Shown one piece after another: positions 2,674 to 45,900 of a stretch of DNA of 64,000 nucleotides. The position numbers were made by a program, and so were the translations under genes. How positions within the stretch are numbered: position 1 is the stretch's first letter; every line of letters begins with the position of its first letter. A model generated the notes under the pieces. That model did no database searches and was not told where the DNA came from. It saw only the letters and a program-made list of their open reading frames with translations. Location: assembly GCA_002633005.1 (NCBI GenBank), contig NMRA01000081.1, positions 946,353-1,010,352 on the forward strand, in the 5' to 3' direction. The DNA comes from Phoronis australis. Its lineage: Eukaryota > Animalia > Phoronida.

Positions 2674-5465
2674 GCACATACTCTAATTTATATAATCATC
2701 CAAAAACCATTGAAGAGCCCAAGAAGGTAAGTCTATGTTTTTCTGTTTTTCACTTTGACTTGACTACCTCAGCTTTGTGTACAGTGCTGTAATCGAGAGC
2801 ACTGTGGCCAATTGGCATGTTGGAATCTGGTCCAGTGTTCAGCAATCCTTCGGTCTTTTGTTTGCCCGCACAAGCCACATGCCAATTATCTACCACGTCT
2901 CAAAGAGTTATTGTTGTACCCAATGGATTACAAATTTATGAATGAATATATGAACGTGGAACTTGCTGGCTAGTTCCTTATCACTGTGATTGCTTGACCA
3001 ATTTAGTTAGAAACACAACATATAGCGATGATGTGAATATGAAGTAGGTTGAAAATTGCCAAATGTTTTAAGAATGAGTTTTGCGGTGAAAATGGTCCAG
3101 TGCAAATCACTGAGCCAACCCGGAATGGATCATGGTGTGGTGCTGGGGAATAACACTGCATGATGTGGGCTATGTAAGCCCGCGAGGTATGTCTTTATTG
3201 CAAAGGTCACATATTTGCAGATTTTTGTTTTCACATTTTCAGATTGTCAACGAATACAACTGCACTTTGTTTAGCGTAGATTATGTTAGCATAGCATTGC
3301 CGTTTAGTTCCTGCTATAAACGAACATAGTTAGGAGTATGCAAATACATCTTTAAGATGAAAACGCCTGGGTTGAAAACATGTTAAAAATGCAATCCAAT
3401 TACATTGCTTTTCATGAAGAATTCAATTTTAGAAGCCAAACTATAAAAAATCACTAGTTTTAGAGTATACGATATTGCAATTTATTTCAGCTTAGTGTTT
3501 TATTATTGCAAATTTATCACTTATGAAGTACTTGCTCTGTTCCATTCAAAAAGAACTTAGATCAGTATTCGTGATATCGAGAGTGATGACACTCGCAATA
3601 CTTCTACAAATCTGTTGATAATATGCAAGGGGCAGTGAAAGGAACCGAGTTTCTGATGTATGACCTAGGCGGAAATTTTGAATCAATTTCCAAAGTGCTA
3701 CTTTGAAACGGAGCCTATTGGTTAATGAGATTACTTGAATTGATTATTTAGTTATTAGAAATGAACTACAACATTAGAGGTGCTGCGTCCCCCTCTAGTG
3801 GGCTTTATCTTGAATATTGATGGTATTGCCACCAGGTGGCCATGAGAAGTGAACTGAATATCAGTCACTGATGCAAGTGCTATTTATATCGACATCAGTT
3901 TAAATTAAATGCCTAAATGAGTATTGATATTGGAGATTTGATGGTAAACTGACTATAAACTAAGATATAACACGCATCTTTATTCTCCAGAATTGAATAA
4001 AGATGTGCGTCATATCTTACTGAATGCCTGAAAATAACAAAAAAAAAAATATTTATGTATAATGGATGTTCCTGCTTAAGTTGTCTCACTTCCTTAACGT
4101 CTCATTCTCTGTCTGTCTATCACCAGCGGCGAGAACCTAAGACATCAGTCAGTAACCAGTCAATAGAGGGCATCACTGTAGATGAAGTGGAGACTGAGTT
4201 CAATGAGAGGAATGTTAAAAATACTGCAGCATTTTCTCAGAGATCGAAGAATGAGACTGCAGAGGAGAAAAGGCTTCGAAAACAGGCCGTGAAGATGGAG
4301 CGTAAGGTTAGTATGTAAGAAAATGGTGGAATACTTGTCTTTGGTCAAGAAGACCAAGGCAATAGTTTGTTGATCTGATTTGCATGTACAGTTGTGGCTT
4401 AGGACACCATCTAAGTTTGGGGTACATTAAAAATGGTCATAAATTTAAATATGGTTTGCACAAAAACTCGCTGATTTCTTTATTTTATTGAAAATTCAGG
4501 ACGTAACAAACTTGTGGGACACATTTTGAATATGAGTGTCTTGTAAAAGAGATTATGTATGTTTGCACTTCTTGGTGGTGGCAAAGCTAAGGTGTGGTGG
4601 TTTTTATTCACCTAGCGTTTGAAAATGACAGTCTTCAAATGGCTGCCTCCAGCACATGAACATTCATTTGCTTCCCTTGTCTTGGCAACCATTGCATTGC
4701 TTAACGCATTAGCTGGCATGCTAGCTGAATGCTAAGTTCTTTTCAGTTTTCCTGAGTAGAGTTTTTCTTATGAGTGTCTATGCAAAAAGTAATTAAGTGG
4801 ATTTAGGTTATGGGGGGTAGAGGTTACAGGTAATGTCTCAAAAACGTGAAATGATACGGTTTGGGAAGTGGTGTTTTCATGTTTCCATTGGTGGACTAAG
4901 TGTGTGAGAGGGAGGGCTATTTTGTTGTACAGTATTCAGATGTGCCTGATGTCAAGTTGAGATAACTTTGGATTGAGGAAATTAACAAGTCTATTATTGG
5001 AACACTCAGTTGTAATTATGTCACCTGTTTAAATTTGATTTCACTTAACTAGTATGCATTTTATATAGTATTTTTGTTCTTAGGTATGATTACAGAGGAA
5101 TATGTATTTGCATTTTACGGATTAAAGTGCTCTGCATAGTTGCATTTTGGGGATTTTTGTGACATTGAACTCAGAGTTAATTATATTAATTACTGATTAA
5201 GAAGTCCTTTATACATGCCGTTCTTGAACACTTTTGGAATTAAAAACTTAATTATGTTAGCCTATGCAAACAAAAGGTTTGAATTATGGTGGTAGCTTGA
5301 AAGATGTTTGACATTTCCGCCTGACGTTGTCTACAATCTCTTGATTTACAGGAAAGACGAGTTGAAAAGAAGTTAACAAAGAAAGCTTTCAAGCAGGAAG
5401 AGATTAGACAAGGAAAGGAATTGATGAACTTGAGAAAAAATTTACAGGGAATTAAAATGACGTAG
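2674..5465 (+). CDS. LTV1: LTV1 ribosome (40S) biogenesis factor homolog, 3' part only (last three coding exons; 5' exons lie upstream of the window)
   Basis: Exons 2674-2726, 4127-4306 and 5352-5465, all AG/GT bounded and phase-compatible. They translate to (S)TYSNLYNHPKTIEEPKK / RREPK...RSKNETAEEKRLRKQAVKMERK / ERRVEKKLTKKAFKQEEIRQGKELMNLRKNLQGIKMT*. STYSNLYNHP and ERRxEKK...AFK are LTV1 C-terminal signatures. Confidence 0.9.
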
Positions 5466-8400
5466 CATTACCGTTTTCCAATCAATGGTTAAATTATTAC
5501 ATCATGAACAAAGCCAATGACGAATCATACCTCTTGGTAGTCAATGGAAAGTTGACAGTTTGACAGCAGCAGACTGTTTGGGACACCAGCATATCTTGGA
5601 ACTATTGGTCTAGGGTGAGGACACCAGCACATCTCAGACTATTTGTGTAGGATGAGGAGACCAGCACAGTGCAAGAGTGCTTTCTACATTTATGGTGGAG
5701 AAGCCAATATTATATGATCACTGCACATATTGAACATTTAGAATTTGTTTCGCTGGGAATTCTACTTGATATGGCATATGTGATTTGAACATTAATTTTA
5801 TAAATCTTCACAGAATAGTTTTCATATTTGTCTTGCCTGTGCAACTGTCCTTAGTTGTGAACTTGTAGCTGCTTTTTAAACTGTTTTTACTATTTGACTA
5901 CATAGGTTAATGTACTGCACTGTTGTAAATAGACGGAGAGTTTGTGCTAAAGAACTTTAAAGGATTAAATGTTTAGAATCATAATTATGATTCAAGTGGT
6001 GTTCCAAATTTAAACTGTGCCTTGTGACATAAAACAGGGGTGGAGAATTTGACAAGGCATGCGAAAACTGCCTTGTGGTGACATACTTGGTGTTGTTGTG
6101 GGGACCTCTGTGGTTACTGTCCTTTTAAATAGTCCTGAAGCTACGTTCTCATGTGTTCATCGAGGTGTAAACAAGACATCCCATTACCACTCTTGTAAAC
6201 ATGCCGGAGCACTTGTACACAGTTCTGTTGTTGTTTTGATGGGTGCCTCTAAACCAATTGTTTTTGTGAAGTTTTCCCTGGGTGCACAATGCTTGTGGGT
6301 TAATTAGGGTGTGAATATTTATATATACTGACACTGGCATAGTTCCCATTGGTTGGCATGCGTGGTGATGTTTCTCTGTGGTTTGCAACCCATTGAAAAG
6401 ACAACATTCATGTACAAGAATTACCCAGTTGTTGCCATGTGATTTTATGTGGACTCACCCTGCTTTACAAATGTGTTTGGTTTCAATGTGTTTCCAGAGA
6501 ATGACTACAGCAGTTCAAATTTTGATTTTATCCTTAATATCACGGATCAATTTGGTCTGTTGATTGTTTCATGAAATTCCATATGATGACGAACCTATCG
6601 GTTGCAATCAAACTCCATTTAACTAAGCTTACTGTCTGGGAGCATATAGTCCTAGTTACTATCAACTCGTGTTATTAACTCACTGGACTATTTTATCCAG
6701 ACTTCATTAGCGCTTTAATTGCACAAGTGTTTCAATCATTTGTGAATTATTATGTAACTCTCCATGATTGTTTCATAGTTGTTAAATATTAATTAACCTA
6801 TTTCAATTTACTGAGATTGTCATTAGTAACGCCCTTTTTAACCTTTGATCTTCAAAACCATGCAGTCCGCATCGAATATTAAATTGCTTACTTCCTCTGG
6901 TCATTTACGGCTGACATCACTGCACGCCCATAAACGATCATTCCGCGATTTTTTATATTTTTAAATAATAAAAGCCTGTCTGATGCATGGAACGTCATTG
7001 GTATCCAGAAAATACACTGTTAACCAATCAGGAATCATAGTCTTAATATTGAATTCCAAATGAATGATTGAACAGTTTCTCGGCAGTATAATGTTTTCAC
7101 AGCATAAACACTCCAGAATGCTGGCCTTGCTTGTCACCCAAGCGAGAAAGCCCTGAAGATTTGATCATGCATATACTTTTGAAAACGTGATTGGCTTTGC
7201 AAATTACCGGCGGATTAATACCAAAACATGCGCTCCAAAGTTCAGCGCAAGTGGTTCTCCTGAAGAGTTTGTGATAAAAAAATGCTGAAGATTGTGGGAA
7301 TAGCTTAGAAGCAACTTTTTGACAATTAAGTCGATAACTTCGAAAAGTATAGGTTTACCGGCACGTGCAAAACGCGTGAGCGGTGTAAATTCTTTTGTTT
7401 ATTCTTCCTCTTAAGATATTCAAGATGGTTTCCATGTTCTTGTGATGGCACTGTACGTACATATGGTAATTTTTGGGGGGTAGGCCAAGTTTGGCGGCAG
7501 TTTTGAGGCATGCATTACACGTAGGTTCGTCAAAGCTGTTTTGCTTGTGTTTGTGAACATTGAGTGCTATAGATACACTTTTCTTCAAAATTATGGCTGC
7601 TGTAGCGTTGTTGCGTTGCTGCTGATCATATTGCGATATCAGGTAGCTCTCAAACATTCTAATGAGAGTTGTGTTATCTCGTGTCGAGCACTGGCAGGGA
7701 AGTGTTTGTTTTCAATTGGGCTGAAAATTAGTGTCAATTTTGCGTTTTAACTTTTTGCCACCTTTTTGAAGCCTCGCTTTCTAGTTTTTTCGGTGGAAGT
7801 AAACGGACCAAAAAATAGAGACCGAATATAATGGTTCTGTGGTCATGTGTAACGCGTTCGAGATAAAATTGTTCTTGTTCATAGAGTTTTCGACAAAGGA
7901 AGAAAGGCGTTAGTACAGAGATGTGAGCACTGGCTGTCCGGCAAAACCCAACGAGAACTATACAGTGTCTTGATGCGACCCTCCTTTTTAAAAATCCTGG
8001 ATCCGCCCCTGTGATATTTCAAGATCTATAAACTACGTAGGAATCGTCCGACTACTGGTGACGCTCACCAGTGGTGTAGTGAAGCGTAGATGCAGTACAC
8101 CACCCTTTTCAGTGTAGCGTCTACGTACGATGAACTGAGGTGTAATGGCTCGTAGGCCCACATTATGATACGCTGGCCAGGGCTTCGGGCGTATATATAC
8201 ATCTAAATTTACCACAACAGCATTGTCGCTCACTCCACTCGGTGAACGAGTACTTAAATGTAATTACATTTTTATGTTCTCTACCCTGGAGCTTTCGCAA
8301 TCGAAAGTCATTCGGAATTATCTTAATCTTTTGAAAATCGAACCTCGAATGCCAGTGATGTGATGCGATTACTTTCCAGACTAGTTCAAATTTTGATGGT

Positions 8401-11230: not shown

Positions 11231-12036
11231 TGGACCGGAGGCCTAAATTATGAAACAACTTGATAAAAAAGTAAAATTAGTTCATAAAGCGACTTGTTAT
11301 CGTTCAGTTTTCGCTTAGAAGTTGTTACTGTAGTAAAAAATACCAGCGAGAGAAAGTGCAATATTTTAATAAATAATTAAAACGACAACAAGTGACACGA
11401 CAACATATTAAATAATACTTAGTTAACATATTTTAATGGTAGCGATGACGGAAAACTAAATGTAAGATAGATGGATATGTAATGAAACAATTATACACAC
11501 TTGAAAAATAATTACATCCACCTATAGGTTTTCCAGATGAAAATAAAGTCATCAAAACTGGAACAAAATATTTCTTTGACAGTAAGAAAACCATTAAAAC
11601 ATAAAACTGACATAAGACAACGAAACCGATAAAACGTTTTCTAAAGGATTTCGATGATTAATTTAATTTGAGGTAACATTCTGAAATCCATGTAAATTTC
11701 ACATTTCTGCTATCAGAAATGTATTTGTTTAGGTGGCTTTAATGGAAAACTGATTCCGTGACAACCTCATTTTTTTGAATTTGTAGTAGGCAAAGACCAA
11801 AATAAAAACATGAAAATTTTAAAAAAACCAGTTGAAAGATAATTTATAACTTAGAAGTACAATGACAATCAAGAAGACTTTGTCAGTTGAATCATACCAC
11901 ACTCCTAAATATTTTACAGCTGTCAAAACATTCAGATATTTTGTATGGAATTTAACCGCCCTAATTAAGACATTTTCTAAATTTAAAGCACGTTGAGTTC
12001 GGAAATAAATTAAAACATCACTAGAGATTTTCTTAA

Positions 12037-13428
12037 TTAAATAGGCTCGCCACCCGGCCAAATGTTCGGCAGCCTACACTTTTGTGGAATTCGTGTTCTT
12101 GGCGACCATCCCCTTTTCTTTATTGGCTCTCCTCCCGGCCACGTGCTGAACACATTTCGAAAGGTTGACACATCACGCTTTCTCAGTATCGGCTCCCCAC
12201 CAAGTCCCGACAGTGCTTGCCTCCAGAAAATGACGCAATCAAGAGATCTATGGTTCGAATTACGCCTTTGTCTGTCAAAGTCGTGTTCTGAACGGGGAGA
12301 ATCTAAACTCTCGCGCTTGTGTCTTTGCGACTGTCCATTTACAAAAGAGTGTTCCACAGGCCCCGTAATGCTATCGATACTTCTGCGCCGAATAGGCTCG
12401 CCTCCGGGCCACATCATGCTCCATGGCAACTGTTTGTCACCGCGAGTACGTTTGGCGGCATTTGAGAAATCGTCCTCCTTTCTGATAGAAGCTCCATATG
12501 TTGACAGAGCGGCTGTTAGAAAAATAATAAAAATAATATGAAAACAAAAAATAAATTGGAACTATGTTCAGAACTTTTTGTTTCATTCTTCTGTAACATT
12601 TTCTCTGTTCACAATGGTCCTTCAAATAAACAATATTTCACACGCTTGTATTTATGTGCAATTGTTATAGCCGTTCACTTTCGATGTTCTCATTTATCAA
12701 CTAGATATAAACAAAAGTAATAAAATGGACTAGTTCTCAACTTCACTTTCACACAGTCCGTGATGTGAAAAATGACAGTAAAAAGATTCCCGAGAAAACC
12801 ATCACAACTGTTTGAAGGTTATGGAGGACCTTATACATAAGTCTGTATGTTTAGCCAAATATCTACTAAACTACAGCTTTTAACTCGGCAAAAGCATAAA
12901 TTTCCTGAATAAAGAAAGCCAATAAAATTAGATTTTTGACTTCCTGCCAATCTGCCATCAGTTGGGCCCCCATGTCTTTGTAGTAAAATACAGCAAAAAA
13001 GAAATAGAAAAGTCAAAACAATGGTATCAACAAGCCAAATTTTGTTTAAATTAAATGCTCAAGACGAAATCTCAAAACGTTTACGTGTTCCTATATTATC
13101 ATTTCGTTTTCTTATTATGTAACTTCTGACTTTTTCTTGAAAATCACACAAGTCCAATTTTTGGAGGCCTCTCATACAAAGGTGGAACGTTTGAATGAAG
13201 CTTATCTGAAATTTTCATAAGAATCCAATTACTCATCTCCGAGATCTGATATTCCGAAGTTGGCCAAATTGGAAAATATTTCCAGAAACCTACCTAAACG
13301 TAACCATAACGCACGTGCTGAGTTAATAACATTCTTAGCTGAAAGGAAAAGAAGTGTAGACAATGTCATTTGTATCTGATCTGATACTCACCACAAGAGC
13401 CAATTACTAAAAACACGCAAACTTTCAT
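12037..13428 (-). CDS. Secreted neuropeptide/peptide-hormone precursor (170 aa) with four GGEPI-ending peptides; family not recognised
   Basis: Exon 1 13428-13392 (ATG...TGT G|gtgagt) plus exon 2 12512-12037 (tttctaacag|CC), phase-1 compatible. Protein: MKVCVFLVIGSCAALSTYG-ASIRKEDDFSNAAKR-TRGDKQLPWSMMWPGGEPI-RRR...SLDCVIFWRQALSGLGGEPIL-RKR-DVSTFRNVFSTWPGGEPI-KKR-GWSPRTRIPQKCRLPNIWPGGEPI*. It has a hydrophobic signal peptide, di/tribasic cleavage sites and a repeated motif with synonymous codon divergence. Confidence 0.85.
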
Positions 13429-13500
13429 TGCCTGGTCTCTATCGGTTAAATTCGTATTCCTTTCCTGCTGCAACTGCTGTTAGCGATGTCGACCGTCGCG

Positions 13501-13508
13501 TTATTATA
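13501..13508 (-). promoter_or_regulatory. Possible TATA box of the peptide precursor gene
   Basis: TATAATAA on the minus strand about 75 nt upstream of the ATG. Position is plausible but not verifiable. Confidence 0.3.
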
Positions 13509-16065
13509 CCCGTTAGTACATCCGGGTAACAGGTCCCTAATAATAACCTGACGACACCGTTCATTACAATCAAAACAATAACAGCCGAATCAATTTCAGA
13601 TTCCGTGCGCGTCAGTGGTAAACATAAAAGGGAAATCGGGGCATGATGACACAAGACAAACATGACATTTTAGATTTTTATGATTTTTCGTATGAATGAA
13701 ATTTTTACTTTCACTTTGCAGTGTAAAATGTTTTCGCCCCAAAACAATCGCCTTTCGTTAATGCAATTTAACTATGTAAGTCTATACTCACTTGTTAGTA
13801 TGAAGAATATAAAGATAGCCTCAATAACGAAGAATTTAGAATTTCACTGTTAAACAGGAAGACTAACTGATTTTTATTTTGAAGACAGTACATTTCCCGA
13901 GGTGGCATGTCGTAAACACTTTTAGTTAATCTTATCCCATGGCAGTCGCATCTTTTTTTGAAAAAACCAGTAGAAAGGCGGTAGAACAGAACCAATTTCT
14001 CAAATTCCCTGCTTTCTCCAATCATCCTTTCACAGCTTGATTTAATTTCCATTAGGCACGGTTTGCCGAGTCGCTATTCGAATAATTGATATATACCAGG
14101 CCTTAATTTCCTATCTAGATGACTGCGACATCAAATGGGAAAGCACTCTATTGAATACTGTGTAGACAACATCCCTAAAACCTATAGTTTAGCGTATGAA
14201 TTAAATATCAAACATTTCGCTCAACTAAAACGAAAATAAAAATGGCATCGCTGTAGATAAACACAGCTTTGTTTTTGAACTGGTTTTGTATAAATCAACT
14301 GCATTAACCGCGTTTTGCCGAAAGCGCCTTAGGGCCCTAACTTTGGATGGAAGTCGACTGGAAAACAAAACAGAAGCAGAGTACTTGACGATGTGGAATT
14401 ATGGTTAGAGATCAACTTTCAGTTTACTAAAATTGTCACAGAATCCACAAATTATGGTGAGCAAACAACGCTAAATATAACTATAGGTAAAAGCCACCGT
14501 GGGAATTATATTTACATGTTGACAGGAAATGTTTTATGTCCAAAAACTGTAAATAAAACTTACACGCGGCAAAAACACATATCCAGATTTACATTTTCAA
14601 ACTTAAAGTGTGAATTGGTTATTATATTTTTAACAAGAACAGACTTGTATTCGGCTGGAAATTTTAAATATCTTTTTTTAAACTTTGTCAAAATTTGCGA
14701 AGACTTTAGATTGGTAAGTCACACTCATTGACGGCATTCATTTTTTACTATTTTGTTAGCAAGGTTCTACCTAACCGCGTGCCTTGTACAGTCATCCCAC
14801 ACGTGGTTTTCGTGCAATACGGGAGCGCCCCGTTCACAGGGAAGATTCCTGGATTATTCTAGAGGCACCGGACAGGTGAAATACATTAAGAAAACGTGTG
14901 AGAAATGACTTTTAACGCCAACAATATGGGGCAACAAAACATTGAACTTAAATTTCGACTTCTGAACTAATTTGCACATAGAAATATAAAAACCCAATAA
15001 CGTTTAAATCATGATTGCGTTTCAAAAACAACATTTTTTTAGAATTAGAAATGAAAACTTCCAAAGCGCTGAATATCGTTCTTTTAGCTTTGAAGACTGT
15101 GCAAAGTACCCCCTAGTAAAATTAATAAAATAGATTAAAACTCACAATCCCTCGAGAACATATTTCTAACCATGAACCATGTTATCGAGGCTACCGTTCT
15201 TAATTTTTCTTTTAACGGCACTGCCTAGAACGTTTACTAAATTCAACCCAGCGTGAAAAGTATAGTGTACTCTTAAGCTTGATCCAAGATTCGCATTTCA
15301 ACATTTTTGCACTCTGACACTGTCGCTGAAAATACTGTGCGTGAATGTAGTCCGCGGGCATTTTTTTTGCTTTGTTGCGAAGTTATAACAACACAACATG
15401 AACTGACACAGGTCAACATTCATGAATATTTTGAAAACAACCTTGCACTCATTGACACGGAGTTTTTGGGCATCTGTCCAAGCCACACAAACACTTATCA
15501 TAGTAAACATTTTCATTTTTAGTCAATCAGATCAAATTTTGACACTTGGGTTATTAGCGGATAAGGAAGTCTCTTTTCCGATTGGTTTGATAAGAAATGA
15601 CATCAATGATCAAAAGCTCTTGTCTCGTGGATCGCAGTCAACATTGCCTAACGAATGACCCTGGTTAATAGCCCGGGCTGATAGAAACCTTGCATGCCAC
15701 GTGCTAATCTGTGTCAGCAGGTCTGACACATGCGGACAATTTAGTTGTGCGCTTGTCTGCTTGAGATCTCAGGTCACATTTTATTTCGAGGGAAGGAGGG
15801 TTATTGTGTGAAGCCGTACCTCAAGAGTATCGCTTGATGAACAATAACAATAAAATGAAAATAAAGCTCTGAAATTAGGTTTGATTTGATAACTACAACT
15901 CTCGATCAAAACTCAGTCGAGCAGGCAACCGAAATTTTTCAGTACGAACTCTCGCGGCTAGTCTCGGGGTCGCAAGCTCTAACAGAATACATGGTCACGT
16001 GCGGGGGTTGGCATTCCAGGGCTAGAGTTCTATGACGTTACAAAACATAATTTTAGCGCTATGTA

Positions 16066-21191: not shown

Positions 21192-21460
21192 TTAAAGGCG
21201 AAGGCAACCTTTTTTCATGTCATTTTGAGCTAAAATAAGGTTGGTTGGTTATCCTAGACATATTTTCCAATTAATTACAGCTTTTCGTAATTTTGTTAAT
21301 TACTCGTCCGCTACTCCGGAAGTGACGTTTTAGGAGGCAAGCATTTCGCGCCAATTTCTTTTCATATAGTCTGACTGTGAGAACTGCCGACTCAGTCATT
21401 GTTCTACCTCGGTTGTATTTAGGTCCGTCGTCGTTTGCTTTCATTTACTAGTCAGTCAAC

Positions 21461-22545
21461 ATGCCACACTGTTGCTGCGTACCGGGATGTACTATTTATC
21501 GTCTCACGCGCGCTTTGGGAGTACCTTTCCATCGCTTTCCGATGGATGACACACTTCGCCGTACTTGTTTCGCTCGTGTGAAGAACGCAGCGTTACCCGT
21601 CCATTCAACGTACAAAGCAGTCGAGAATTACCGTGTGTGTGGCAAACACTTTCTGACGTTCAATTACGAAAGGGATTTGTACGCTGAACTGATGAAGGTC
21701 CCTGCGAAACAACGCCTGAAGAAGGATGCCATTCCGCCTGTGTTGATTCCCGACAGTGCCCCGTCGCCACCCCCGAGAAGTGCGTTTTTGAAGCGAGAAG
21801 CCTCGCGAGCTGTGGCCAGTACAGTGACTGGAGCCAGTGGAGGCACTTCATCTACTGTCACCCGTGCCTCTGAACGTACCCCCAGAGCGTGCCATTCCTG
21901 GAACCAGTAGTGATTCGCCCTGTGCTATTTTCTCCAGCCCAGAGCCTCTAAGCAGCCCTGCAGCGATATTGAGTAGTGGGAGTGATTACAGGCCCAGTTC
22001 GACACCCAGTGAAGAGGACAGTTCGTCGTCCAGTGAACAGATCGGTGAGCCAAACTTTGATAAGTTTATTGTGGACTTGTCTAAAGTGTTGGAGCTATTT
22101 AGAAGGTGCCAGGTGTGTGGCGAGGGAGTCACACGACACAATGTAAGCAGTTTGGGTGCTCAGGTCACCATCCAGTGGGAGTGTGTCACGGGACACTCTG
22201 GCAAGTGGGACAGTTGTTCCTCTGTCCGTGGTATGCCGGAGGTCCACTTAACCATGTCCAGTGGTGTGCTCTTCACTGGAAACACGTTTCAGTCGGTGAA
22301 GACAATGATGGACTTTGGAAAAGTCAAGTTTTTTTTCGAAAACAACATTCAACAACATTCAGAATTCCTATTTAATACCAGTTGTCAATGACGCATACAT
22401 GTCACAACATCTCGAGTTGGTGGCGGAATTCATGGAGAAGGAGAACTTGTCTGACTCACCAGGGCGGTCCGCCAAGTATACCACATACACTCTAATGGAG
22501 GAAGAGACCAAAAAGATAATTGATGTGGAACTCGGAACAGCACAA
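21461..22545 (+). pseudogene. THAP-domain Kolobok-like transposase, frame-disrupted and 3'-truncated
   Basis: MPHCCCVPGC...FHRFP...RVCGKHF...LKKDAIP is a THAP zinc finger. Later frames give CQVC...WECVTGH..KWDS and DSPGRSAKYTTYTLME, which I recall from Kolobok-type transposases. Split over three frames (some breaks could be introns) and cut at ~22545. Confidence 0.75.
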
Positions 22546-22803
22546 GCATTCAATTGAGGTAGGCATAACAACGCACACAGTGCATTTGCACCAAGATGTG
22601 TCACCACGTCTGTCTTCAGTAGCCGCCTCGTTTCTCTCAACAGCTGCCTGTGCCTGTGTGTACTCTGCCTCGTTGTACTCGGGCTCAAACATGTACCCAC
22701 CCACTGAATGTCCGTGAAAAAATTCCTCGTCACCACTGCTGTGAACAAGGTCTCCGTCACTCACACTACTGTCACTGTGATACGGGTCACCGACTCCAGC
22801 CAT
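22531..22803 (-). pseudogene. 5' remnant of a P2X7-ballast/nanor-like Cys-rich accessory protein of the transposon
   Basis: MAGVGD...GGYMFEPEY...RRGDTSWCKCTVCVVMPTSIECLCCSE matches the Y-x-FEP...WCxCxxCxxM...ECxCCxE pattern of the P2X7 C-terminal Cys-rich domain. Truncated where it meets the transposase remnant. Confidence 0.7.
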
Positions 22804-23277
22804 TTTCAGCTTACAACACACTAAACAATCCCTAAATCCAACGCAGTTGAGTTCTCTACTAACCTATCTTGCCGCAGAATACTCGCCGATGGAAAGTGGT
22901 GGCGACAATTGGTGAAAAATAGCACAAAACAAAAGTAGAATAGAACAGATTCGCACAGTAAGCTCAACGCAAAACCAAGTGGCGGGAAGCGCTTGCCTCC
23001 TAAAACGTCACTTCCGGAGTAGCGGACGAGTAATTAATAAAATTACGAAAAGCTGTAATTAAGTGGAAAATATGTCTAGGATAACCAACCAACCTTATTT
23101 TAGCTCAAAATGACATGAAAAAAGGTTGCCTTCGCCTTTAACAACAACAAAAAAGCTTTGCTGATTTGCTACCTGCCGGATGTTGGTCACTTGCTGAAAC
23201 AAATTTGGTGTCATCTTGTTCCTCACCCACAATAAAATAATTTCCAAGCTTGAAAAGAGTGCTCATCTGTTTGTTAT

Positions 23278-27374: not shown

Positions 27375-28303
27375 TTAATGAAAAAATTTTGCAAGTTTGT
27401 CTATTTCCGATTTGCGTTAACATTTAGCCAAATCTAGCAAACTGTAGAACATCGTAAGGACTCAAAAAAGATTTAATCTACTGTAAGTGGCCTATAAGAC
27501 CGAATGTACTTAGAAAATTGACAAGAAAATCAGTGTGGAATGGATTAACTAACATATGACTGATGAAAATGACAATGATGACATTGTGTATACATATTTT
27601 ATTACAGTAAAAAAGTTAAGTGTGCAGAATTTTAAAAAAGTGACAATCATCAAGCCAGAAACGACTGACCCTGGCCTGAACGAGTAGGCTAAGTTAGTAA
27701 GCAAGTCACAAAGATCGCTGTTGTAAAAACAACTTCAAGTAAGACAGTTAAGTTTAAGTTTTCAAAAATAACTTTGATGCTTGCATTGTTTGCACTGGAT
27801 CCGATGTTAACAGAACTGAAAAGCTGCAGAGTTCCCCATGATTGTAATTTTTCACCACTCTGCAATGATTGAATAATTACTAAGAGGGCCCTCTCTGATC
27901 CTGTGATTGGCTCAGTAGAGACAGTATACGGTGCTACCTGACGAACAATGTTGTACAGTTCAGTAACGGTAGGCCGGTGCGTTGGCCCCATACACGTTGT
28001 GGGATGAACTACTTTCTTTTCACTAACTCGCGCATTGACATTATCTATCAAAACTGTTATGATGAAAAATAAAGGATTTTATTTAAAATTTAAATGTGGG
28101 TATAGAATTCAAGGTATGTAAAACAAAAATTACATCTATTAAATGCTTCCAAAAACATATAACAAGTGTAACATGTAATTTTTCGAGAACTAGTTTTGCG
28201 TGAAGCTATACGCCTGTACTTAGGTTGTCGGCGTCGCCATCTTGACATCGTGCTGTAGAAGCGTGCAATTCTCCTGAAATCATTCATCCTGAGCTGTTTG
28301 AAC

Positions 28304-31300
28304 ATGGAACAGATGCAAGAACAAAACCAGTCCCAAGCTGTCAACGGGACATATGTTAGCGAGCTTAAAAATGAACTGGACAACTTGGATGCTTCTTATA
28401 CTAATTCACGTAGACTCTTGGCTCAAGGTGAGTGACAATCCAGGCAACATGACAAAGAAACGCTGTTAAGTGTTGAAAAATCGTTTGTAGTTTGTGCTTG
28501 TAGACTCTTCGATCGTTTTTATCAAGGTGTATACGCTTAAAATCTTTCAGATTTGTTAATGACAGAGTGACAAGCGAATAGTAAAATCCCGAATCTTCGA
28601 GGGAACAGGTTCTTTCAGACAAAAGGCTTGATTTAGGTACAGTGAAATGTGTTTACGTGATTGTAATTATCGACGCGTGCAGGTTAATATTTGATATCCA
28701 GTTTGAATGTGACATGTATGACACTAAATTCTATGCTTTTAATGTACGTACTTCCAACCGTGTTTTAGGATTGGTTCACCAACTAACTATAGGCTAGCTG
28801 TTTCTATTGTCCGTGCATATGGTTTCAGAGTTGGAGAAAGCAAGCAACACTGATTCAGTCAAGAAGTTTCCAGCTCGATGGATCGATGTCACTTCACCAA
28901 AACCCATAAAACTACAGGAGAAGGTGATGATCCCAGTACAGGAGCACCCAAAGTATAACTTTGTGGGTACACTACTTGGTCCTAAAGGCAGTACACTCAA
29001 GAGGTTGCAAGAAGAGACGGGAACAAAGATGGCCATTCTTGGTAGAGGCTCTGTTCGTGACAAGGCGAAGGTGAAATTTCACATGATTTGTTAGCATTTA
29101 CATGGCTGGAAATTGTTTATGTTGCACAGTTCTAATTGTTCTAGAATTGACAGAACACCAACTTTTGTCATTGCAAAGTGACCATATTCCTATTGACTGG
29201 TTAATTTACAAGATCCTGAGTAGAGATTTCCTAACCACCCTCATGGGCGACAGGCAGAGTTTTTCTGAAATCTATTCATTTTGTTAACCAGCTTCTAGCT
29301 AATTCACAGTGTCAGTGTAAATAAGGTATTCGTTGATCTAAATAAACCAATACAAATAATACGATTATGTCTCACACCTCAAAGCTAGTTTAGGAAGTCA
29401 GCAGATTTTTTAAGGTTTTGGTCTTGACTCAATTCGTCTGTCCTTGGGATGTTTTTTCACTCTTTAAAAGGGGACTGTAGTCAAAATAATGTTGTAGTTA
29501 ATCGGTTCTAACATACAAATAAAACTCACATTTGCCTGACTTGCGTGCCAAACAAAAGCCAATTCGTATTCATGGTCAAAACACTGAATTCTGAAAGCGA
29601 TCGCTGATTGGCTGATGTGTCAGTGACGTGAACGGCGGGGTATCGGCTGCTTTGCACATTCATTGCTTATGTCATATTTGAAGAGTTTACATCGTAATTT
29701 ATCATTGTATCAATCGTCCTTATTTTTTATTGTTTGCCACAGTGCTGTAAAAGGTTCGCTATGCCTTTTTGTATGGCACCTGGTTGCTCAAACTCTTCGA
29801 AAAAGGCGTCTTCTAAAGGGATGGTCATCGCATACCATCGCCGGGTTACCCAAGCCTTGGCCCAAAGCTCAGTGTATACTAGATATAGGCCTACAGGTTT
29901 AAGCCGATATGGGTAAAAAATGTACAAATAAAATCTGACTCAAATAAATGTCATTAAAACTAAGTCATCCTTGAGTAAACCTAGGAACCAGGTTCCTAGA
30001 GTAAACTAACTTCTGTATTTACCGGTGTTGGAAATGTTAGCGATCGTTCATCGGCTGCTGCTAGTAAAATTGTGATGTGTTCTCGGCTTTTTGCGATTAC
30101 GTCACCTGACCTTTACCAGTTTCTTTTCCCCCTGATTCTTTTATCAAGTGTTCGTCGCTGACGGTACCTAGGTTGCGTACATGTTATAACAAATTATCGG
30201 AGCTTGTTTCATTTTGTTTCAAGTTTTTAGTATTTTTACACCAGCAAACCGAATTTTAGAACAACCTTGGTGCTGCGAAGCTGTTATCATGTCCCGAAAG
30301 ACGTCTCAAATTTTTATGAAATGGCGCGTGCGCCGTGTCACGAGCGTGCTGTTCTTGAAACGGACGACACACTTCTTTGTTAAAAAGGCGGCAAATTATG
30401 CTACCAAATGACGTTTATTTGATTGTTTTCCACTTAAACGGCTGCAACGAACAATGGGAGTGTCGGGTGACTACCAGATTTTGCATGCGCCCGCGCCGGT
30501 CCGTTAGCTTTATATGTCGATGTAGCCTAAGTTTTACGACGAGGTGACGAGCATAACTGAGTCAACTATACCCGGGTAGACAACGGCTGTCTGAAATTTC
30601 GGGGTTAACGGAGCTCAACACACAGTGGTACGATAGTCTTCATACAGCTATAGTCGGTATCTTACCAACACTTCAAGTTTACAGAGCTGACAGTATTGGC
30701 TGACAGCTGGCTGACTGGATGGCTAGAGTCCACATTGCCCTCGATCGCCACAGTCACTGACACCAGTTGCACCGGCAAATTTTCGTCTGACGATGACAAT
30801 GACTGGGTATCACTTTGTGTTGCCTCGGCTCAAACAGGTATCCCTTGTGACCCGACATTTCACACTAAAATTTCTTATTCCGACAATATGAAAAACGCTA
30901 CTTGATTGCACGATAACACAGGACAGTGACTTGGCCCCCGCCAAATACGTCACGAGACCAAGCAGCGCTCCAAGCCGGTAATTTTTTGAGCTTCGTTTGA
31001 GAATATAAGTTTAATTTTTGGCGTTGAATTATTTGTGAAATTAATCAACAATTCACAGAAAACTATCCAGAATTTATTCAGAATAAAATACAGTTCCCTT
31101 TTAATAAAAACGTATTCAGAATGCATCTTTTCACATTGCCATGTTACGGATTTATCCATATTCTTACATACTTTTAGGACCCAAGAAATCAATTTCCAAA
31201 TGTTATGCATTTTGAGGTTTCATTTCTGTTTAAAGAATTCAACTTCAGTTTAGAAATGCCACTGAAAAGTTTGGTAATGCCAGGTCAGCAAGGATATGCA

Positions 31301-34300
31301 GTAAGTTGAAGCTATAGTACACATTATACAGTTGTCGACAGTGCTTATGGTATTTCTTCAGGAAGAGGAGCAGCGTAAAGAAGGTGGAAAGTACGCCCAT
31401 CTCAATGAGGAATTGCATGTGATGGTTGAAGCATTTGGCCCTGTGGGTCAGGCTTATGGCAGAATTGGCCATGCCCTTGCAGAATTAAGGAAGTTCTTAG
31501 TGCCGGTAAGTTTTTGAAAGAAAATTGTGGTCATTTAATAAAAGCTTACCATTTTAGGAATTAAAGATAGATAACAGACGGTAAAATGTGATCATCTAGT
31601 GTGCGGTTCTCATTATCACACGAGTTGAACACAAATACATTTGATCATCTAGAGAAAGGTTCACATTTAATAGAGGGTTTGAACAGTATTGGGTAGTAAA
31701 ATATCATCTAGTGTTAGGCTCCCATCTATTACAGGAATTGAACTCAGATATCAGACAGCAGCAGTTCGACCAGCTAGTGGACATGGGTCAGTTGACGTCT
31801 CGAGGTGGTGGGCGTGGCGGAGCTCGTGGAGGTCGAGGTGGCATGGGGGCTTCTGGCGAAAGTCGACTAGGTGGTGGACCTTTTGGTGCTGATAGGGGCA
31901 GAGGCCGTGGTGCTGCGCGTGGTGCTCCTCGGGGACGTGGTGGACCTCCCACAGCTAGGGGTTCCCTGTCAGCACGTGGCGGCATGCCGCCTCGTCGTGA
32001 CCCCTACACTGAAGAGTCTGTTTACAGGGACGACTATGTAAGCAAACATGTCGTTAATGTAATGTTGTGTTAAGGTTATCTTAAACCTTATTCATAAAAG
32101 TTAGCCATTTTTACAATATTTCACGTGTGTTTACCAAAGTACCATACTGGGAACTTCAAATACGAAATATATATCGTGTCGCGAGAAGAAATGATTAAGC
32201 ATGGAAATTTGTTAATTACATATCCAAGTTCAAAAGTAGCAGGGCTGCCACTCGAATTGAGTCTCCCTGTGCCAGGCATAGAGCAGTTTGGCATGCACCC
32301 TCGGTCCTTTCATTCGCTGAGTTGACATAATATTGAGTCAACGAGGTGTACATGGCATAGAAAGATGCCGCGGAAAGCGGATGTTTTTATCCTGAAGGAG
32401 TTGTGCATCTACATGCATACGACGGTTGAGAACGAATTCATTACTTGGATTGGTAATTTGACATTTTGCTGTTTCAATCTCATGATCACGGCACGCTTTT
32501 ATCACCAACTCAACTTCTATTGTCCATTTCATACTTGGTTTCTTGGTGCATGGTGTGTATATACAATGAACTACTTACTGTTGACTCTGCCATCTGACCT
32601 AGACAACACAAGGTACTGGAAACCTTGCGCACAAAATTGAAACGTTTTAGCGACAATTAATTATGCACTGCAAATTCAGTGGACATTGCGAGTGAATGTT
32701 GAAATAGCGAATTTGGTTAAGGTATACATAGGTTATATTAACTGATAGCAAGTTGATACAGCATAATTAACCGAAGATCTTGAGATTTTCACGTCTCACA
32801 ACTTAAATGGCTTTTTCTCGGCTTCGGCAAATCGACTTAATTAATTTGAACTTAGATATGTTGTCATGGTTGTAGTCCTATTTTCCGTGTTGTACAGGAG
32901 AGCTCAAGGGGTGCATATGATACAGGCTATAGTGAGCGTGGCTATGAGCAGGAGTATGATCAAGGCTATGGCACTGCTAGGTGAGTGAAGAAATTAGTGA
33001 TAGGGCAGCCAACAGGAAAATAAGTCTGCATCCTGAGTAACCTTGATACGCATGGATGTGGTCCAGTTGAAAATTTGCTCGGGCGTTGTCTTTTATATAT
33101 TGACTCAGTTGAAGGGAACTGTAGCATGTTAGCTGTTCCATGATGTCTGTGCCTCCGTCTTATTCATAGGAAATGTTATGGTTAAAGTATGCTTTAAACG
33201 TTCTTGTATAAAGCTTGTTGAACTGTGGTGTGGTTTCTGAACTGTGATGTGATGTCTCACCAGTTGCAAAATGTATCTTTGGCTAGCGACACCAAGTACT
33301 TTGACTACGGTCACGGCAGCACAGGTGGTGCTCAAGCCAGGGATCCTTACGGCTACGAAGATACTGGATATGGTAAGTTAACTTTCTTTTGGTGAAATTG
33401 CCAGCTGTTAGGTCTAATTGAGAACACGGTCAAGTTTCCAAAGGCGCTTGGTGCTGCTCAGTTTACCGGACTTTGTACTGTAATACTTATCATTTGTGAC
33501 ACGCGTGCAGCGAAAGATCTGGCTTTGTGCAACTGATTAGTATACTTGATGATGTCTCTTGTCACTCAATGCACCACAGGTCTCGTGCATTAGGTGCCGT
33601 GTTGAGCACGTTATCAGGAAGGTGCTTGCTAGGTTTCGTGGCGCCGTACTTGTCTTCTAACTAGAAATGAATTCCATTTGTCTTTTTGGGACAACTAAAC
33701 TAACTTTTCAATGTGGCGGCCTTGGGCAGGGTCCAGGTGTGTGTACCTTGATTGCTGTTCTGGGGTGGACGTTCTGTCCATCGTCCAGTGCTGTAGGAAC
33801 CCACCGTCCAGCAGGCCGTACAGTGACATCCAGGTTCATAGTGCTGATCAGGCTCTCTGTGGCCTGCCCAGTCTCCTTACTTTGGTACAACCATGCCTCT
33901 TATTGCTTAAGTCAACAGTTTGGCAAACAGTGTTACGATGAACAATTGTTTATACTGCTTGCTCGCTCATTCCTTCCATTGCACAAGTGCCGAGCCAACT
34001 TCCTACTATTCAGTTTGATGATAACAAGCAAGGTCTTGGAGGTGATGTTCACTGTAACACTGATCAATTGCACTGCTATTCACATTTGAGTTGAAGCCCT
34101 TATGCGTTTCACTTCCATACACCTGTTTGCTCACATTAACACTCATCCACTGATTCCGTAATCTGACTAGGTACATCGATTCACAACCCGTTATTGTTAT
34201 TTATAGGCTACTGTTGACACGTCTATTGCGGATCTATTTAAGGTGACAGTTGGAGCTCTGGGATGGGACGTGCCACTGGTGGTGGTACCATGAAGTCTGC

Positions 34301-34361
34301 CTCGCGGGGGATGGGAGCCCGCTCCCAGTCCCACCCTTACGGGGGTGCTGCTAGATACTAA
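28304..34361 (+). CDS. KHDRBS: KHDRBS/Sam68-family STAR KH-domain RNA-binding protein (366 aa, 7 exons)
   Basis: Exons 28304-28427, 28829-29070, 31362-31505, 31735-32037, 32898-32980, 33287-33372 and 34243-34361, phases consistent. Qua1-like N-terminus (YVSELKNELDNLD...RLLAQE), KH core KVMIPVQEHPKYNFVGTLLGPKGSTLKRLQEETGTKMAILGRGS, YAHLNEELHV, RGG boxes, Tyr-rich tail with YFDYGHG and C-terminal R...HPYGGAARY*. Confidence 0.93.
29468..31100 (+). mobile_element. Older non-autonomous Kolobok-type element in KHDRBS intron 2
   Basis: TTAA|AAGGGGACTGTA ... TACAGTTCCCTT|TTAA. THAP start remnant MPFCMAPGCSN...AYHR at 29761 (+) and a GYLFEP remnant near 30825-30843 (-). Confidence 0.7.
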
Positions 34362-39985: not shown

Positions 39986-42900
39986 TTGGTCGTGCTATTG
40001 CAGTTGACGTTGGGTGGCGGAGATACCCTCATCTGGATTGGGAAGGTGATGGGCTCACTGATGAATGGTGTCGGTGACTTGGCTGCAGGGCTCCTCATGT
40101 GTCTGGTAATGGCACTGTAAGAAGAAAATGGGCCTTGATTACAACCGGGGAATGGAAGATGTGGATGAATAGGGTGGCAAAAATTATGCCGGGGTACATA
40201 TTAAACTACATAAAGGTGAAACATCTATAAAGAACTTTGATTTTAGTGTACTGAAACTGATTTTCTTGTGACTGGTAGTTAGGAATATATACGAAAAAGT
40301 AAACATGTTATATGGCGTGCTTTTTTGTTTCAAGGTCTCAAGCTGTGATTAAATTTGACTAAGTATTTAAAAACGTATCTAAAATATCAAAAAATGTGTC
40401 GTCTGAAAGCTGACTTAACAAAATACCTCGACCAGTCAAGGTAACTGTAAAACCACCAACAAATACTATCCTGCGATTTAAACTCGAGAAAAACAAAAAG
40501 CCGCATAAAGATGGCACCCTTTTATCAAGGGTATGTAAGTACATACATAGTTACAATAGGAATAGGACAATATATATTGTCAGACTTGCACAACCCTTGG
40601 TGATGTAACACATTACCACCTTAATGCAAAATATGGTCAGACTTGAAATGAAGAAAATAATCATGACTTAATTTGGCATAAAAGTAATGGCCAAAAAAAA
40701 CAAAACTGCCACTAGGAGGTGCCACAGTAGTCGAAATCGTTGGAAAATCATCGTCAACTGTCCTCTTCATGGTAAGCACATACATGCCAATTTTCACAAT
40801 CATCCTTTAAGCGGTTTGGTTGATAGAGGGGTAGACGCAAAAAAAAGACTCGAAAACAGTAAAAATGGCCACTAGGTGGCGCAAACTATGTCGAATCCAT
40901 CTGAAAACAGGAGGATAGCGTCATCTCACTAATAGGTGCCTACATACCAAATTTCATGAAAATCCGTTAAGGATTTTGAAGATAGAAAGGTAAGCGTAAA
41001 AAACTAAAATTGCCACTAGGGGGCACACCGGTAGTCAAATCCGTTCGAAAGTTTGGTCATGCCGTCCCATCCGTGAAAGGTACACGTGCAAAATTTCATG
41101 AACACACCTCAATCGGTTTTGGAGATAGAGCAGCGGACGCCGGACAGACGGAGATGACGGCATAATGCGTCCACATATAAATATGTGGGCACATAAAAAT
41201 GCAACGTTCAAAGACAACCAGAGTAAAGAATGCCATGAAGTGGAATTAAAGGGCAATACACCAGCGTATCATGTCAAAAACCATGAGTTTCTAGGCTTGT
41301 AAAGAATTGGCAGATTGTAATAACTTCTAACCATGCCCATTAAGTTGCTTGTTAAGGCAGGTTACTTTTAGTTGCCAATGCAGCATGGCCACCATGATAA
41401 TCTTGAACGTATTGCAACTAATTTCAATTTAAGGATAAGAATGCGAAGGTGTTGCTTTGCAAGAGCAAATACACCATTTTATCTGCTTTGAAGGTTACCT
41501 GCAAATGCAGGGTTGAGGGGGGAAACTGGATCCGCTAATATTGAAAGCAAGAAAGAGATAGACCCACCAATAGTATTGGGGCACGACGTAGGTGCACTGG
41601 GGCCGCGGCATGCCGTTGAAGGTACAGCCAGCTGACAGAGTGTATGCGCCCATGTTGTGGAAGGTGATCCAGGAGCCAATTGCCAGTGCTGGCAGGTAGC
41701 AGCTCTTGGAGATCACGTCCAAACCATCACACGTTGGACCCCAGATGCTGCTCGGGTACAGCTGATGATCAGGGCCAAACTAAAAGACAAAAAGCGAAAC
41801 ACAAATTAATGAAACCAATAGTAGTATAGAAAGTCATCTTCTACAAACTGTAAATGACTCCGACGGTATTTCCCCCCACAGCTTACGCTAGATATGGGTC
41901 AAATCATGTGTTGAGTAAAGAAAGGAAACACACTACCCGGAGGAACCTGTGAATCAGTAATAAGTTATGAACTCTAACATTAATACAACAGCGCATTAAA
42001 GTCTCAGACAAACAACCCAATGTACGTTGGTCAAAGCTACATCCCGCTGAACATCAATCACATTGTCTCAAACAGTAATAATCACACAAGAGCAACACAG
42101 TGTTGAAATGTACCCATGACAGCACAACAAACAGTATGCTGCAAGGAGTGTTTTTTAGTATCACAAAAATGACAATTAGATGGCGCAGAATGCATTGAAC
42201 AGTTCAAAAATGGAAAGGCATTATTTTCTCGAATTACATGGAACTCGAAAGATAAATAGGCAAATCTTTTTGCCAAATTTCCTGAAAATCCATTATAGAA
42301 CTCCGAAGACAAAGAGGAAAACCTAAAAATTAAAATTGTCCCTAAGGGGCAGATCAGACTGAAATTGGTTGCCATGAGTCGTTAGCTTCATAGGAAGACA
42401 TCTACCAAATCTCATTACGATCTTGCAAGAGATTTAGGAGGTAAAGCAGCACACCCCCAGACAAAGATGATGACAACTGTAGCTACACATGTATAATAGC
42501 ATGCATAAAACAATTATCAAAGACTGTAAAAACAACAGGCACATAACGTGCCCTTGACTCTACCTCAGATGCCAGTGGCTCCACCTCCGCATGGTCGTAC
42601 AGAAGACAGTTGAATGAGCCATACACGCCATCATTGACATAGTACATGTACTGTGAAGCGGTGTTAATTGACAGCTTGTTGGCAGACTTGTCACCTGCAC
42701 GTGAAATGTATAAAACATTTAAGGAACACTTGAACTCAAAAATGGCGTTCTTTCAAGCGAATGACAATGACGTCGTTGTCAACACCCACCACTATGCCCG
42801 CTACTTGTTTCCTCATCCTAACTATCAGATCATAATTGTTTTTGCCAAGCCGTTAATAAGCAAACAAAAAACAACAGGCCTCACCACATTCACCACTGTT

Positions 42901-45900
42901 GTTCTCTATGTTACGCTTGGCAATGACGTTGACCACGAGTGAGAATGCAGATGCAGCGAAGTAGCGGCCAGGCTCGGCAATGATGTGAACACCAGTCTCC
43001 TCAGGGAAGAAAGTCTCCAGAGCAGGCCTCAGTTCTCCACATATCTGGTGGACAAACAGCAGACACATCAAGCAGTGGCTGGTCACAGTGTGCACTGGGC
43101 ATGCTCTCAAGCAATAAATGTCAGGTCTTATCAAACTCTAAAATCCCTTCTAATCTGGGTAAAAACAAATCTGAGATCAGTTTTGGAGCAGTAATTACTC
43201 AAAATCGCAAGTGACAAAAAGCAGGTTTCTGGCAGCTTTAATAAGTCATTACCTCCTCAAAGGTGATCTTCTCCCCATGGTGGCCAGGGAAACCACCTCC
43301 AATGTCAAGCAGGTTGAAGTCATAGCCAACCTCCTTGCCGATGTCAAAGGCACTGTGGGCCAGGCTAACAGCCGTGGAGAAGGCCGTGGCATCATAGCAA
43401 CCACTGCCCACATGGAAGCTGTAAGAGCACAAACAATTGGTATTCCGGTAGGCTGAGATACAAAGGATATTTAAAGAGCAGACTTCATCACCCACGGCGA
43501 CAAGCACTGGAGCAGCATATTTCTACAACTGAAAGCTGAATTGTGGTATTTTTCTTTACGCATTAGTCTATGTCAAGACTTTTATGCACTTAACACTTGC
43601 ATTGTCTCAAGGCAAGTGACATTTACCTTTGAGTGACTTACCAGCCATGAACCCAGTCCACTCACCTGACTCCCACCACGTTCAACTCCAGTCGGCGTGC
43701 CCTCTCCAGCAGACCTCGCACGTCAGTCAAATGGCAGCCAAACTTGTTGCCCAGCTGACACTGCACCTTCTGGTTCTCTGGTGGTAGAATGCGAATGACT
43801 AGCCTGTAGAAGACAAACAGAAAGTGAAACTAACTTTATCAAATGAGCTTAATTGTCTCATAAACTTGATTGACATTTAAAACGCAGAAGTTTGATTGGC
43901 ACACAAAAGGCGGAGCTCATCAGTCCTTCCAGCTCTGACTGGCAAACAAAAGGCGGAGCTCAGCAGGTCTTCCAGCTCTGACTGGCAAACAAAAGGCGGA
44001 GCTCAGCGCAGCAGCTCCTGCAACTTTGATTGGCACACGAACTGTCGACGTGTTCAACCAGCGCAATCTAATTCTGGTCCATACTTACTTGGCATCTGGA
44101 AAGAGGTCTTTGATTTTGTACAGTTCCGTCTCATTGTCGAATGTCATCATCTGGACATCAGACTGCTGTGCATACTTGATGTGTGACCGCTGCTTGCATG
44201 GGTTAGCATAGATGATGCTATCAGGGTTGACACCTAGGTCCAGCATGCACTTTATCTCTGCCTGAAATTACAGGGGGCTGGTGATAAGAAAGGCATACTC
44301 AAATACAGGACAACATTTTCAGCAAAAACATAAATCGTGAGATGCTTTACACACGCTTGCACTCATGAAGACTGTCATTGTTACAAGTGAAAGACCTCAA
44401 TACCTCAATACAACAGCAGTCACCATTTAGACACACAATACATCAACAACATAGCAACGACCAATTAAACACACCATACCCACCCCACCTACTGACCTGC
44501 ATCGACTCTGTTGTGCAACATGTCACACTGTACTTGTTCAGATTCAGATACTTAACTTAAGGTTTAAAAACTGGCTAGCCTTTGCAAACCTGACACTTTA
44601 GTTTTCTGCAGTGTGTGGTTTTATCACAGGTTAAAATGGTCAATGAACAATGAATTTGTTTTATTTTTCAAGAAGTGTAGCTTTTCAGTCATTTCCTGAG
44701 GCACTCCATATTCTGATACCCCGTCTACTAATAACTGAGGTAAAGCCAGTATTCAAAACCACGCTACTCCTTCAAGTCCTAACATTGTTACCCACTTTCT
44801 AACTCGTGCGACAAATCGTTGACGTTCTACTTGGTTTTCTTTTCAACTCCCGCAAATGTGACACGCTCATTCAAGGTTTCACAGCATGAGACATGTGCAG
44901 TCTTATTACTTTAGAAAATATCAACTGCTCAATGTTCAGCAGTGATTATCTAAAATATGACCCATATTTAGTGCTGCAAAAATTTGCCTTGTTTTGGTTG
45001 GTGGTATTCGTGTCGAGGAATTTGCAAATGGCATCATATTAAGTGACAATGTATGACAAATGGAATGCAAATGACAGCCAGACAACCCATCCGCTGTCTG
45101 CGCCATGGTTGAGCTAGTTTGTGCACACAGCCATTCAGATAAGTTTGATTTCATTTCACACAGTTTGCTTTTGAATTTTACCGCAGTTGCTTGGTATTAC
45201 TGCCAAAATGAGTGATGAATCCAATCTGAAGTTGCACTATGTCTACTACCACATATTAGTTAAACGTGAGTGATTATTATCTGGAATGAACAAAAAATTC
45301 CGCTCAATGTCTCTGAAAATGGCGTTGATATTCGGAACATTAAACACCGCAACTCGGAAGGAATATTACAGTTTCAAGAGAATTCGTCAATATCCAGATC
45401 CAGTTCATTGCAATATTTTTGGTAACAAATAGAAAGATGAAATTTTAATTGTTACACATGAATAACATGTTCATTACTTCAGGTTTCCGTCGACTGAGGT
45501 TCTATTTCAAATCTATCTAAACATGTGTATGTTTAATCATTCACCATAGAAGAAAAAGACTGTTATCAAATAATCTTTAGTGTTTAGACATCCATGTCTT
45601 AACGAGATTACTTGTATTTTAAGGTTATCTAAGACCTTAATAAACGACATCAACTCTAAGTAAAAAACGCTGTCAGGAATTTTTGATTAATCACTTAGTT
45701 CGGATTTTATGTCAAATTAACTCGCAAAAAGGGCATTTTTGTAAAAAAGCAGTGGTCATATTCATATATTGCTCGAAAACTAGACATTTAAAAAAAATCC
45801 TATTAAAACAGCATTTTTGAGACATAACATAAAATTTTCATTTAAAAAAGTTTTAGTAATATCGGGGTGGGGGTTATTTTGCTACAAATGTACCTTTTTG

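Follow-up and report, generated by a model that had tools for sequence, protein, structure and literature searches.

The locus described here raises the question of what is made by a small minus-strand gene in which the same short ending, GGEPI, recurs four times, and whether the product belongs to any peptide family that already has a name. The gene lies in a window of 64 kb, the whole stretch of DNA that was analysed, and it is real and spliced. An earlier note, made from the sequence alone, had joined a 37-nt exon in phase to a 476-nt exon, and both its coordinates and its phase were exact: the 37-nt coding part of exon 1 (13428-13392, minus strand) opens with an ATG at 13428, the 476-nt coding part of exon 2 occupies 12512-12037 on the same strand including the stop codon, and together they form an uninterrupted frame of 170 aa, 157 aa of which come from exon 2. 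The phase 1 intron of 879 nt (12513..13391) is of the GT-AG type, with GTGAGT at its 5' end and a pyrimidine tract followed by AG at its 3' end. Reads across the 13392/12512 junction, which the note had named as a check, are present in RNA run X3, where 20 stranded reads with 13 start points skip exactly 12513-13391, and 16 junction reads are left at 95% likeness. Altogether, 153 X3 reads were placed on 11500-14000, of which 127 are at least 95% alike and the remaining 26 match only in part, chiefly at a short intronic repeat; no base differences between the X3 reads and the exons were listed. The intron stretch 12850-12890 is a short dispersed repeat that is partly matched by reads from other loci in X1, X2 and X3.

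The first mates of X3 fall on the plus strand at the peptide gene and are reversed at the plus-strand neighbour (2.7-6.7 kb), and since this neighbour shows the opposite mate orientation, the RNA of the peptide gene is of the minus strand. Six X3 molecules terminate at 13467, which gives an exon 1 of 13392..13467 (minus strand) with a short 5' UTR and the 37 coding nucleotides for residues 1-12, and no ATG was found upstream of 13428 when 13480-13429 was scanned. A TATA-like box, presumably functional as judged from its sequence, lies roughly 40 nt upstream of the point where the RNA begins (13501..13508, minus strand). The coding part of exon 2 is covered at a mean X3 depth of 22-30, while the 3' UTR (11350..12036, minus strand; about 0.6-0.7 kb, its exact end being approximate) is delimited by a depth of 8.4 in the bin 11340-12006 and of about 0 beyond it; coverage stops near 11350-11450, where two ATTAAA hexamers (11437, 11370) are located.

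Within the 64-kb window the repeated ending is confined to this gene, as a scan of all six frames finds GGEP at four places, each of them in exon 2. It comes as WPGGEPI three times and as GLGGEPIL once, and the residues directly behind the copies are RRR, RKR (after GLGGEPIL), KKR and the stop codon, exactly as the earlier note had read them; the 157 aa that exon 2 encodes contain no tribasic runs other than RRR, RKR and KKR. When these 157 aa were shuffled, any 7-mer was found three times in 0 of 200,000 trials, and a 5-mer four times in 1 of 200,000. Pairwise comparison of the three WPGGEPI copies shows differences at 4, 2 and 4 of 21 nucleotides, all of them third positions, and in the 15-nt GGEPI stretch of the four copies every variable column (4/4) is a third position (chance 0.004). 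Over the 30 nt that lie upstream, the copies are identical to one another at only 7-10 of 30 positions, which bears out the proposal that the copies use synonymous codons between unrelated flanks. Tandem Repeats Finder reported no array in the exon, the motif being the only repeat family there, and a DNA tandem repeat is ruled out by the third-position-only changes, the unrelated flanks and the missing array. The motif is thus held at the protein level and is coupled to convertase-type sites. Moreover, no Gly stands before any basic site or the stop in the whole 170-aa protein, i.e., there is no amidation signal, as had been claimed.

The same observations bear on the reading that the locus encodes no processed precursor at all, being a chance open reading frame, a non-coding RNA or an unprocessed secreted protein. 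Such a reading could draw on the absence of a homologue in any search and on a product known from gene and RNA alone, but the synonymous-only differences among copies, the coupling of motif and tribasic runs and the in-phase splice to an exon with an ATG argue against it, and we regard it as highly improbable.

At its N-terminus, the protein has a single strong hydrophobic segment after Met-Lys (residues 3-13; maximum 3.74 in a 7-residue window, residues 3-9), and hydropathy does not exceed 1.93 past residue 25. The hydrophobic core is short, with 7 strongly hydrophobic residues and a 19-residue window mean of 1.74, and the heuristic (-3,-1) rule is satisfied after residues 12-14, 16, 19 or 21. 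This stretch is likely to be a signal peptide, as predicted from its composition, and the product is likely secreted. The intron interrupts the predicted signal peptide; the earlier assignment of this peptide to exon 1 holds for the hydrophobic core, which lies in residues 1-12, but not for the predicted cleavage, which falls in exon 2. Exon 2 accordingly would supply the end of the signal peptide, the propeptide, the four paracopies, the spacers and the stop.

Basic sites at residues 33-34, 54-56, 76-79, 93-96, 123-125 and 144-146 partition the rest of the protein into four peptides with the GGEPI end and two acidic spacers, an arrangement of paracopies with a common end flanked by basic convertase sites that agrees with the architecture first proposed. 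All of these are on the minus strand. Putative peptide 1 (12391..12441; about 17 aa, N-terminal cut uncertain) ends in WPGGEPI before RRR, and it is followed by spacer 1 (12325..12381; 19 aa) between RRR and RHKR, and by the acidic spacer 2 (12274..12312; 13 aa) between RHKR and RQRR, which starts with S-L-D. Putative peptide 2 (12184..12261; 21-26 aa) has one Cys and ends in GLGGEPIL before RKR, while peptide 3 (12121..12174; 18 aa), predicted between RKR and KKR, ends in WPGGEPI. Peptide 4 (12040..12111; 17-24 aa, N-terminal cut uncertain) also has one Cys and carries WPGGEPI at the stop. The predicted peptide 3 has a monoisotopic mass of 2007.97 and is the only product with unambiguous ends. 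The mature region contains exactly two Cys, at 12237 in peptide 2 and at 12078 in peptide 4, and a disulphide linking these two predicted peptides is possible. The 170-aa protein fits the five-dibasic-site multi-copy pattern of PMC8557429 but not the amide pattern of that paper.

Taken as a whole, the gene would encode a secreted prepropeptide of neuro/endocrine type that belongs to an unnamed family and is cut at basic sites into four free-acid GGEPI(L) peptides that likely signal through a receptor, a reading to which we give slightly better than even chances. By analogy with prohormone biology, the signal peptide would be removed near residue 16-19, the propeptide would be cleaved at the basic sites by PC1/3, PC2 or furin-type convertases, and the basic residues would be trimmed by a carboxypeptidase, with four free-acid peptides ending in GGEPI(L) being released from a restricted cell population. 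The receptor, most likely a G-protein-coupled one, would read the peptide C-terminus, and because the N-termini vary and the C-terminus is fixed, the last seven residues are the likely active part. Such a mechanism would be that of the standard multi-copy proneuropeptide.

Expression of the gene is restricted to one of the three RNA samples. Runs X1, X2 and X3 come from one study with the same species label, and the reads used amount to 18-19% of each run. Depth in X1 and X2 is 0 over both coding exons (a second count leaves a trace, 0.03, in a single bin), where about 147 and 130 reads (both mates counted) would be expected at the X3 rate. As a control, the convergent plus-strand neighbour at ~2674-6700, of which the 3' exons lie in the window and which we take to be LTV1-like, is spliced in X1, X2, X3 and X4, with junction reads of 15/14/9 and 21/14/6 in X1/X2/X3; the tested piece of this gene gave no Pfam match. 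X4, a set of contigs with the same species label, has no placement on the peptide gene, which does not count as evidence. The X3 level of the peptide gene is about 9 RPKM, which is moderate and only a few times that of the housekeeping neighbour.

That expression is all-or-none across the three samples from a single study might also point to an exocrine or reproductive precursor (pheromone, mucus, defensive or venom-type), which would be processed in the same manner and act externally or on a different animal. Such a role could agree with the lack of relatives, the diverged N-termini of the paracopies and the two single cysteines, and venoms have been described to recruit or mimic precursors of this sort (PMC13311285). 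Against this, about 9 RPKM is far under what the dominant product of a gland would reach, if X3 comes from that gland; there are no tandem paralogues of the peptide gene within the 64-kb window, and neither Pfam nor PDB showed a resemblance to any known toxin family. In addition, the predicted peptides are near neutral, neither cationic nor disulphide-rich. An exocrine or reproductive role is considered improbable.

The 157-aa translation of exon 2 served as the homology query, with the 12 exon-1 residues left out. A word search of 5.8 billion proteins left none of 22 candidates of near length and none of 208 of longer length at E<=10, and phmmer over 1.84 billion representatives found nothing at E<=0.001. 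Pfam had no match for exon 2 or for three sub-regions of it, and PDB had none at E<=10. In a metagenome scan, one of 87 candidate stretches passed, and it was rejected as a chance match to the reverse strand of a bacterial gene; the bacterial gene adjoining this locus is presumably MiaB-like. Among the 10 ESM Atlas rows listed, 8 belong to precursors of neuropeptides or peptide hormones that carry names and are of unrelated families, with scores of 0.80-0.85 (below 0.9, low recognition); as a lead only, these rows may speak for the kind of protein, and they name no family.

Short-motif precursors are hard to detect by HMMER. For this reason, and because the lineage is poorly sampled, the missing homologues are weak evidence. 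The poor sampling is indicated by a conserved neighbour, an unusually divergent KHDRBS/Sam68-like KH-domain gene recognised by Pfam (~28300-34360, plus strand), for which the highest identity among the 19 proteins compared is 53%. In a midpoint-rooted tree of six of its exon pieces, with 19 of 52 fetched proteins, it has a long branch of 1.39 and falls with five proteins in a set supported at 99/95, with the named arthropod rows outside that set; two NCBI proteins grouping with it are, we assume, from sea urchins. The DNA is that of an invertebrate with intron-rich genes, and probably of a non-arthropod. Elsewhere in the window, an element of about 1.95 kb (21192-23141) with 197-nt inverted repeats (92% alike), a THAP frame on the plus strand (E 9e-11) and a P2RX7_C-like frame on the minus strand (E 6e-5) is likely a degraded DNA transposon, which we take to be Kolobok-like. 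An intron-rich gene of the ornithine-decarboxylase family (~41500-49630, minus strand) has five exons that match Pfam. Furthermore, 52955-55943 and 61012-64000 are identical (2,989 nt, 100%), the second copy running from an N gap (60729-61011) to the window end, and this is likely an assembly duplication.

The motif was also sought in published peptide sets. In the supplement of PMC8557429, all six GGEP places lie outside mature-peptide repeats, while the supplements of PMC6188537 and PMC9793003 have no GGEP. In the part of the PMC6425005 supplement covered, the GGEP places are unrelated (7 of 8 among the matches listed), and so are all four in the covered part of the PMC3890597 supplement without files 5-7. 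A search for GGEPI in open full texts gave no invertebrate peptide, by title among the matches listed, with subscription journals, figure-only sequences, bioRxiv supplements and line-broken motifs outside its reach; GGEP together with neuropeptide precursor gave, by listing, only locust diapause hormone. The claimed lack of match to any named family is thus borne out by blank results in the protein, Pfam, PDB, metagenome and five-supplement searches, and the GGEPI family is apparently undescribed, in the sense that it was not found in these searches.

WPGG together with neuropeptide in open full texts returned, among the matches, sea-urchin TRH peptides and a receptor loop. The sea-urchin TRH precursor contains QWPGG copies, two of which are extended as GG-E (PMC5860471), and the WPGG tetrapeptide and these two extensions are what a TRH/EFLGamide-type precursor that has lost amidation would explain. 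However, the residue before WPGG is Met, Thr or Ile and never Gln, no basic site adjoins WPGG upstream, no Gly-basic amidation signal is present, and in the Atlas TRH shares its score of 0.80 with many other rows. Unlike the sea-urchin QWPGG and annelid EFLGamide peptides, the GGEPI peptides have long N-terminal extensions. Membership of this family is ruled out, with neither Gln after a basic site nor Gly-basic found, and descent from it with loss of amidation is scarcely credible.

Neurotensin-like peptides are free acids read from the C-terminus, with an end motif of a basic residue, Pro, an aromatic residue, Ile and Leu. The GGEPI peptides would likewise be free acids with Pro and a hydrophobic end, read C-terminally in the mechanism proposed here, but only copy 2 ends in P-I-L, no basic residues precede the Pro and there is no sequence match. 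Membership was rejected on the absence of that end motif and of a Pfam or PDB match. Neurotensin-like peptides have moreover been described as chordate (PMC13311285).

A parallel is offered by lineage-restricted multi-copy precursors, such as phoronid LKFL, the nemertean ND peptide and PSLamide (PMC8557429), Ciona Ci-LF, Ci-YFV/L and Ci-NTLP (PMC6475428) and crinoid PCNP1-20 (PMC9793003). Like them, the GGEPI precursor has a signal peptide, here a predicted one, paracopies with a common end between basic sites and no clear kin; it differs in that the GGEP motif is absent from their neuropeptides in the supplements searched, the Ciona set being distinguished by description only. The GGEPI family is probably lineage-restricted.

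The chief alternative to an entirely new family is descent from pedal peptide/orcokinin. Precursors of lophotrochozoan pedal-peptide-1 contain peptides of two kinds, xLDxLGGxxI(H) and x[FL]DxIx5-7SF[AV] (PMC8557429 supplement). In a divergent paralogue, the xLDxLGGxxI repeat would have become xxWPGGEPI, with degenerate pedal peptides kept as spacers and with the same secretion and processing. The first 14 residues of spacer 1 match x-[LIF]-D-x-I-x6-S-F-x directly after a basic site, i.e., they are in the register of the second type, and this register arose in 15 of 200,000 shuffles for a strict and 238 of 200,000 for a loose pattern, both written post hoc. Three segments start with R-(x)-S-[IL]-D (1 of 200,000 shuffles, again with a post hoc pattern), but S-[IL]-D behind a basic site is frequent in a wide variety of precursors. 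The L..LGG..I spacing of the xLDxLGGxxI type is seen in copy 2 and arose in 249 of 200,000 shuffles, a count that understates chance because GG..I is already present four times. The same spacing occurs in orcokinin-B-like peptides (PMC4237046), and pedal peptides, too, are often unamidated.

The GGEPI units themselves depart from the family. None of the four copies has the x-[LF]-D-x-[IL] start, which is found in one spacer, and the conserved pedal-peptide Asp is absent from all four, with an invariant W-P and E-P instead. SGFx is absent from the protein; S-F-V is inside spacer 1, five residues short of the basic site, which makes this spacer five residues longer. Echinoderm-type pedal peptides show Phe close to the N-terminus, a core of Asp-X-Leu and an aromatic near the C-terminus (PMC9793003); here Glu-Pro-Ile is terminal instead of forming a core, and no aromatic stands behind it. 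The copies number 4 here versus 10-21 in the echinoderm precursors cited (PMC5860471, PMC9793003), and no pedal-peptide precursor was matched by the phmmer or word searches. The resemblance that the earlier note called faint is measurable in the spacers, and there stronger than it was called, but the GGEPI repeats lack the defining features. The GGEPI precursor is accordingly not filed in this family; descent from it, as the spacer sequences suggest, is a real possibility, albeit an unlikely one.

A further-reaching version, which we hold to be improbable, is that the gene may be a founder of an undescribed clade-wide peptide family in transition, in which a pedal-peptide-type precursor would have swapped its active repeat for free-acid WPGGEPI and kept relic spacers, while the cysteines would join peptides 2 and 4 as a two-headed ligand.

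Under the favoured reading of an unnamed secreted signalling precursor, the sequence family is one not found elsewhere, the mechanism is ordinary and the architecture is textbook; surveys of under-studied phyla routinely report several lineage-specific precursors (PMC8557429, PMC6475428, PMC9793003). The finding contributes a peptide precursor that is confirmed by its transcript and apparently undescribed, from an invertebrate lineage of which little has been sampled, and the 18-aa predicted peptide 3 is a defined product usable for synthesis, peptidomics and receptor screening. It also illustrates that unamidated families are under-found by amide-centred searches, as the amide pattern of PMC8557429 misses the protein that the dibasic pattern catches. 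If the pedal-peptide link is true, the gene would bear on a family whose receptors were reported unknown in 2017 (PMC5656890), and if the transition is true, it would show a new ligand family arising from an old one and would provide a handle on its receptor.
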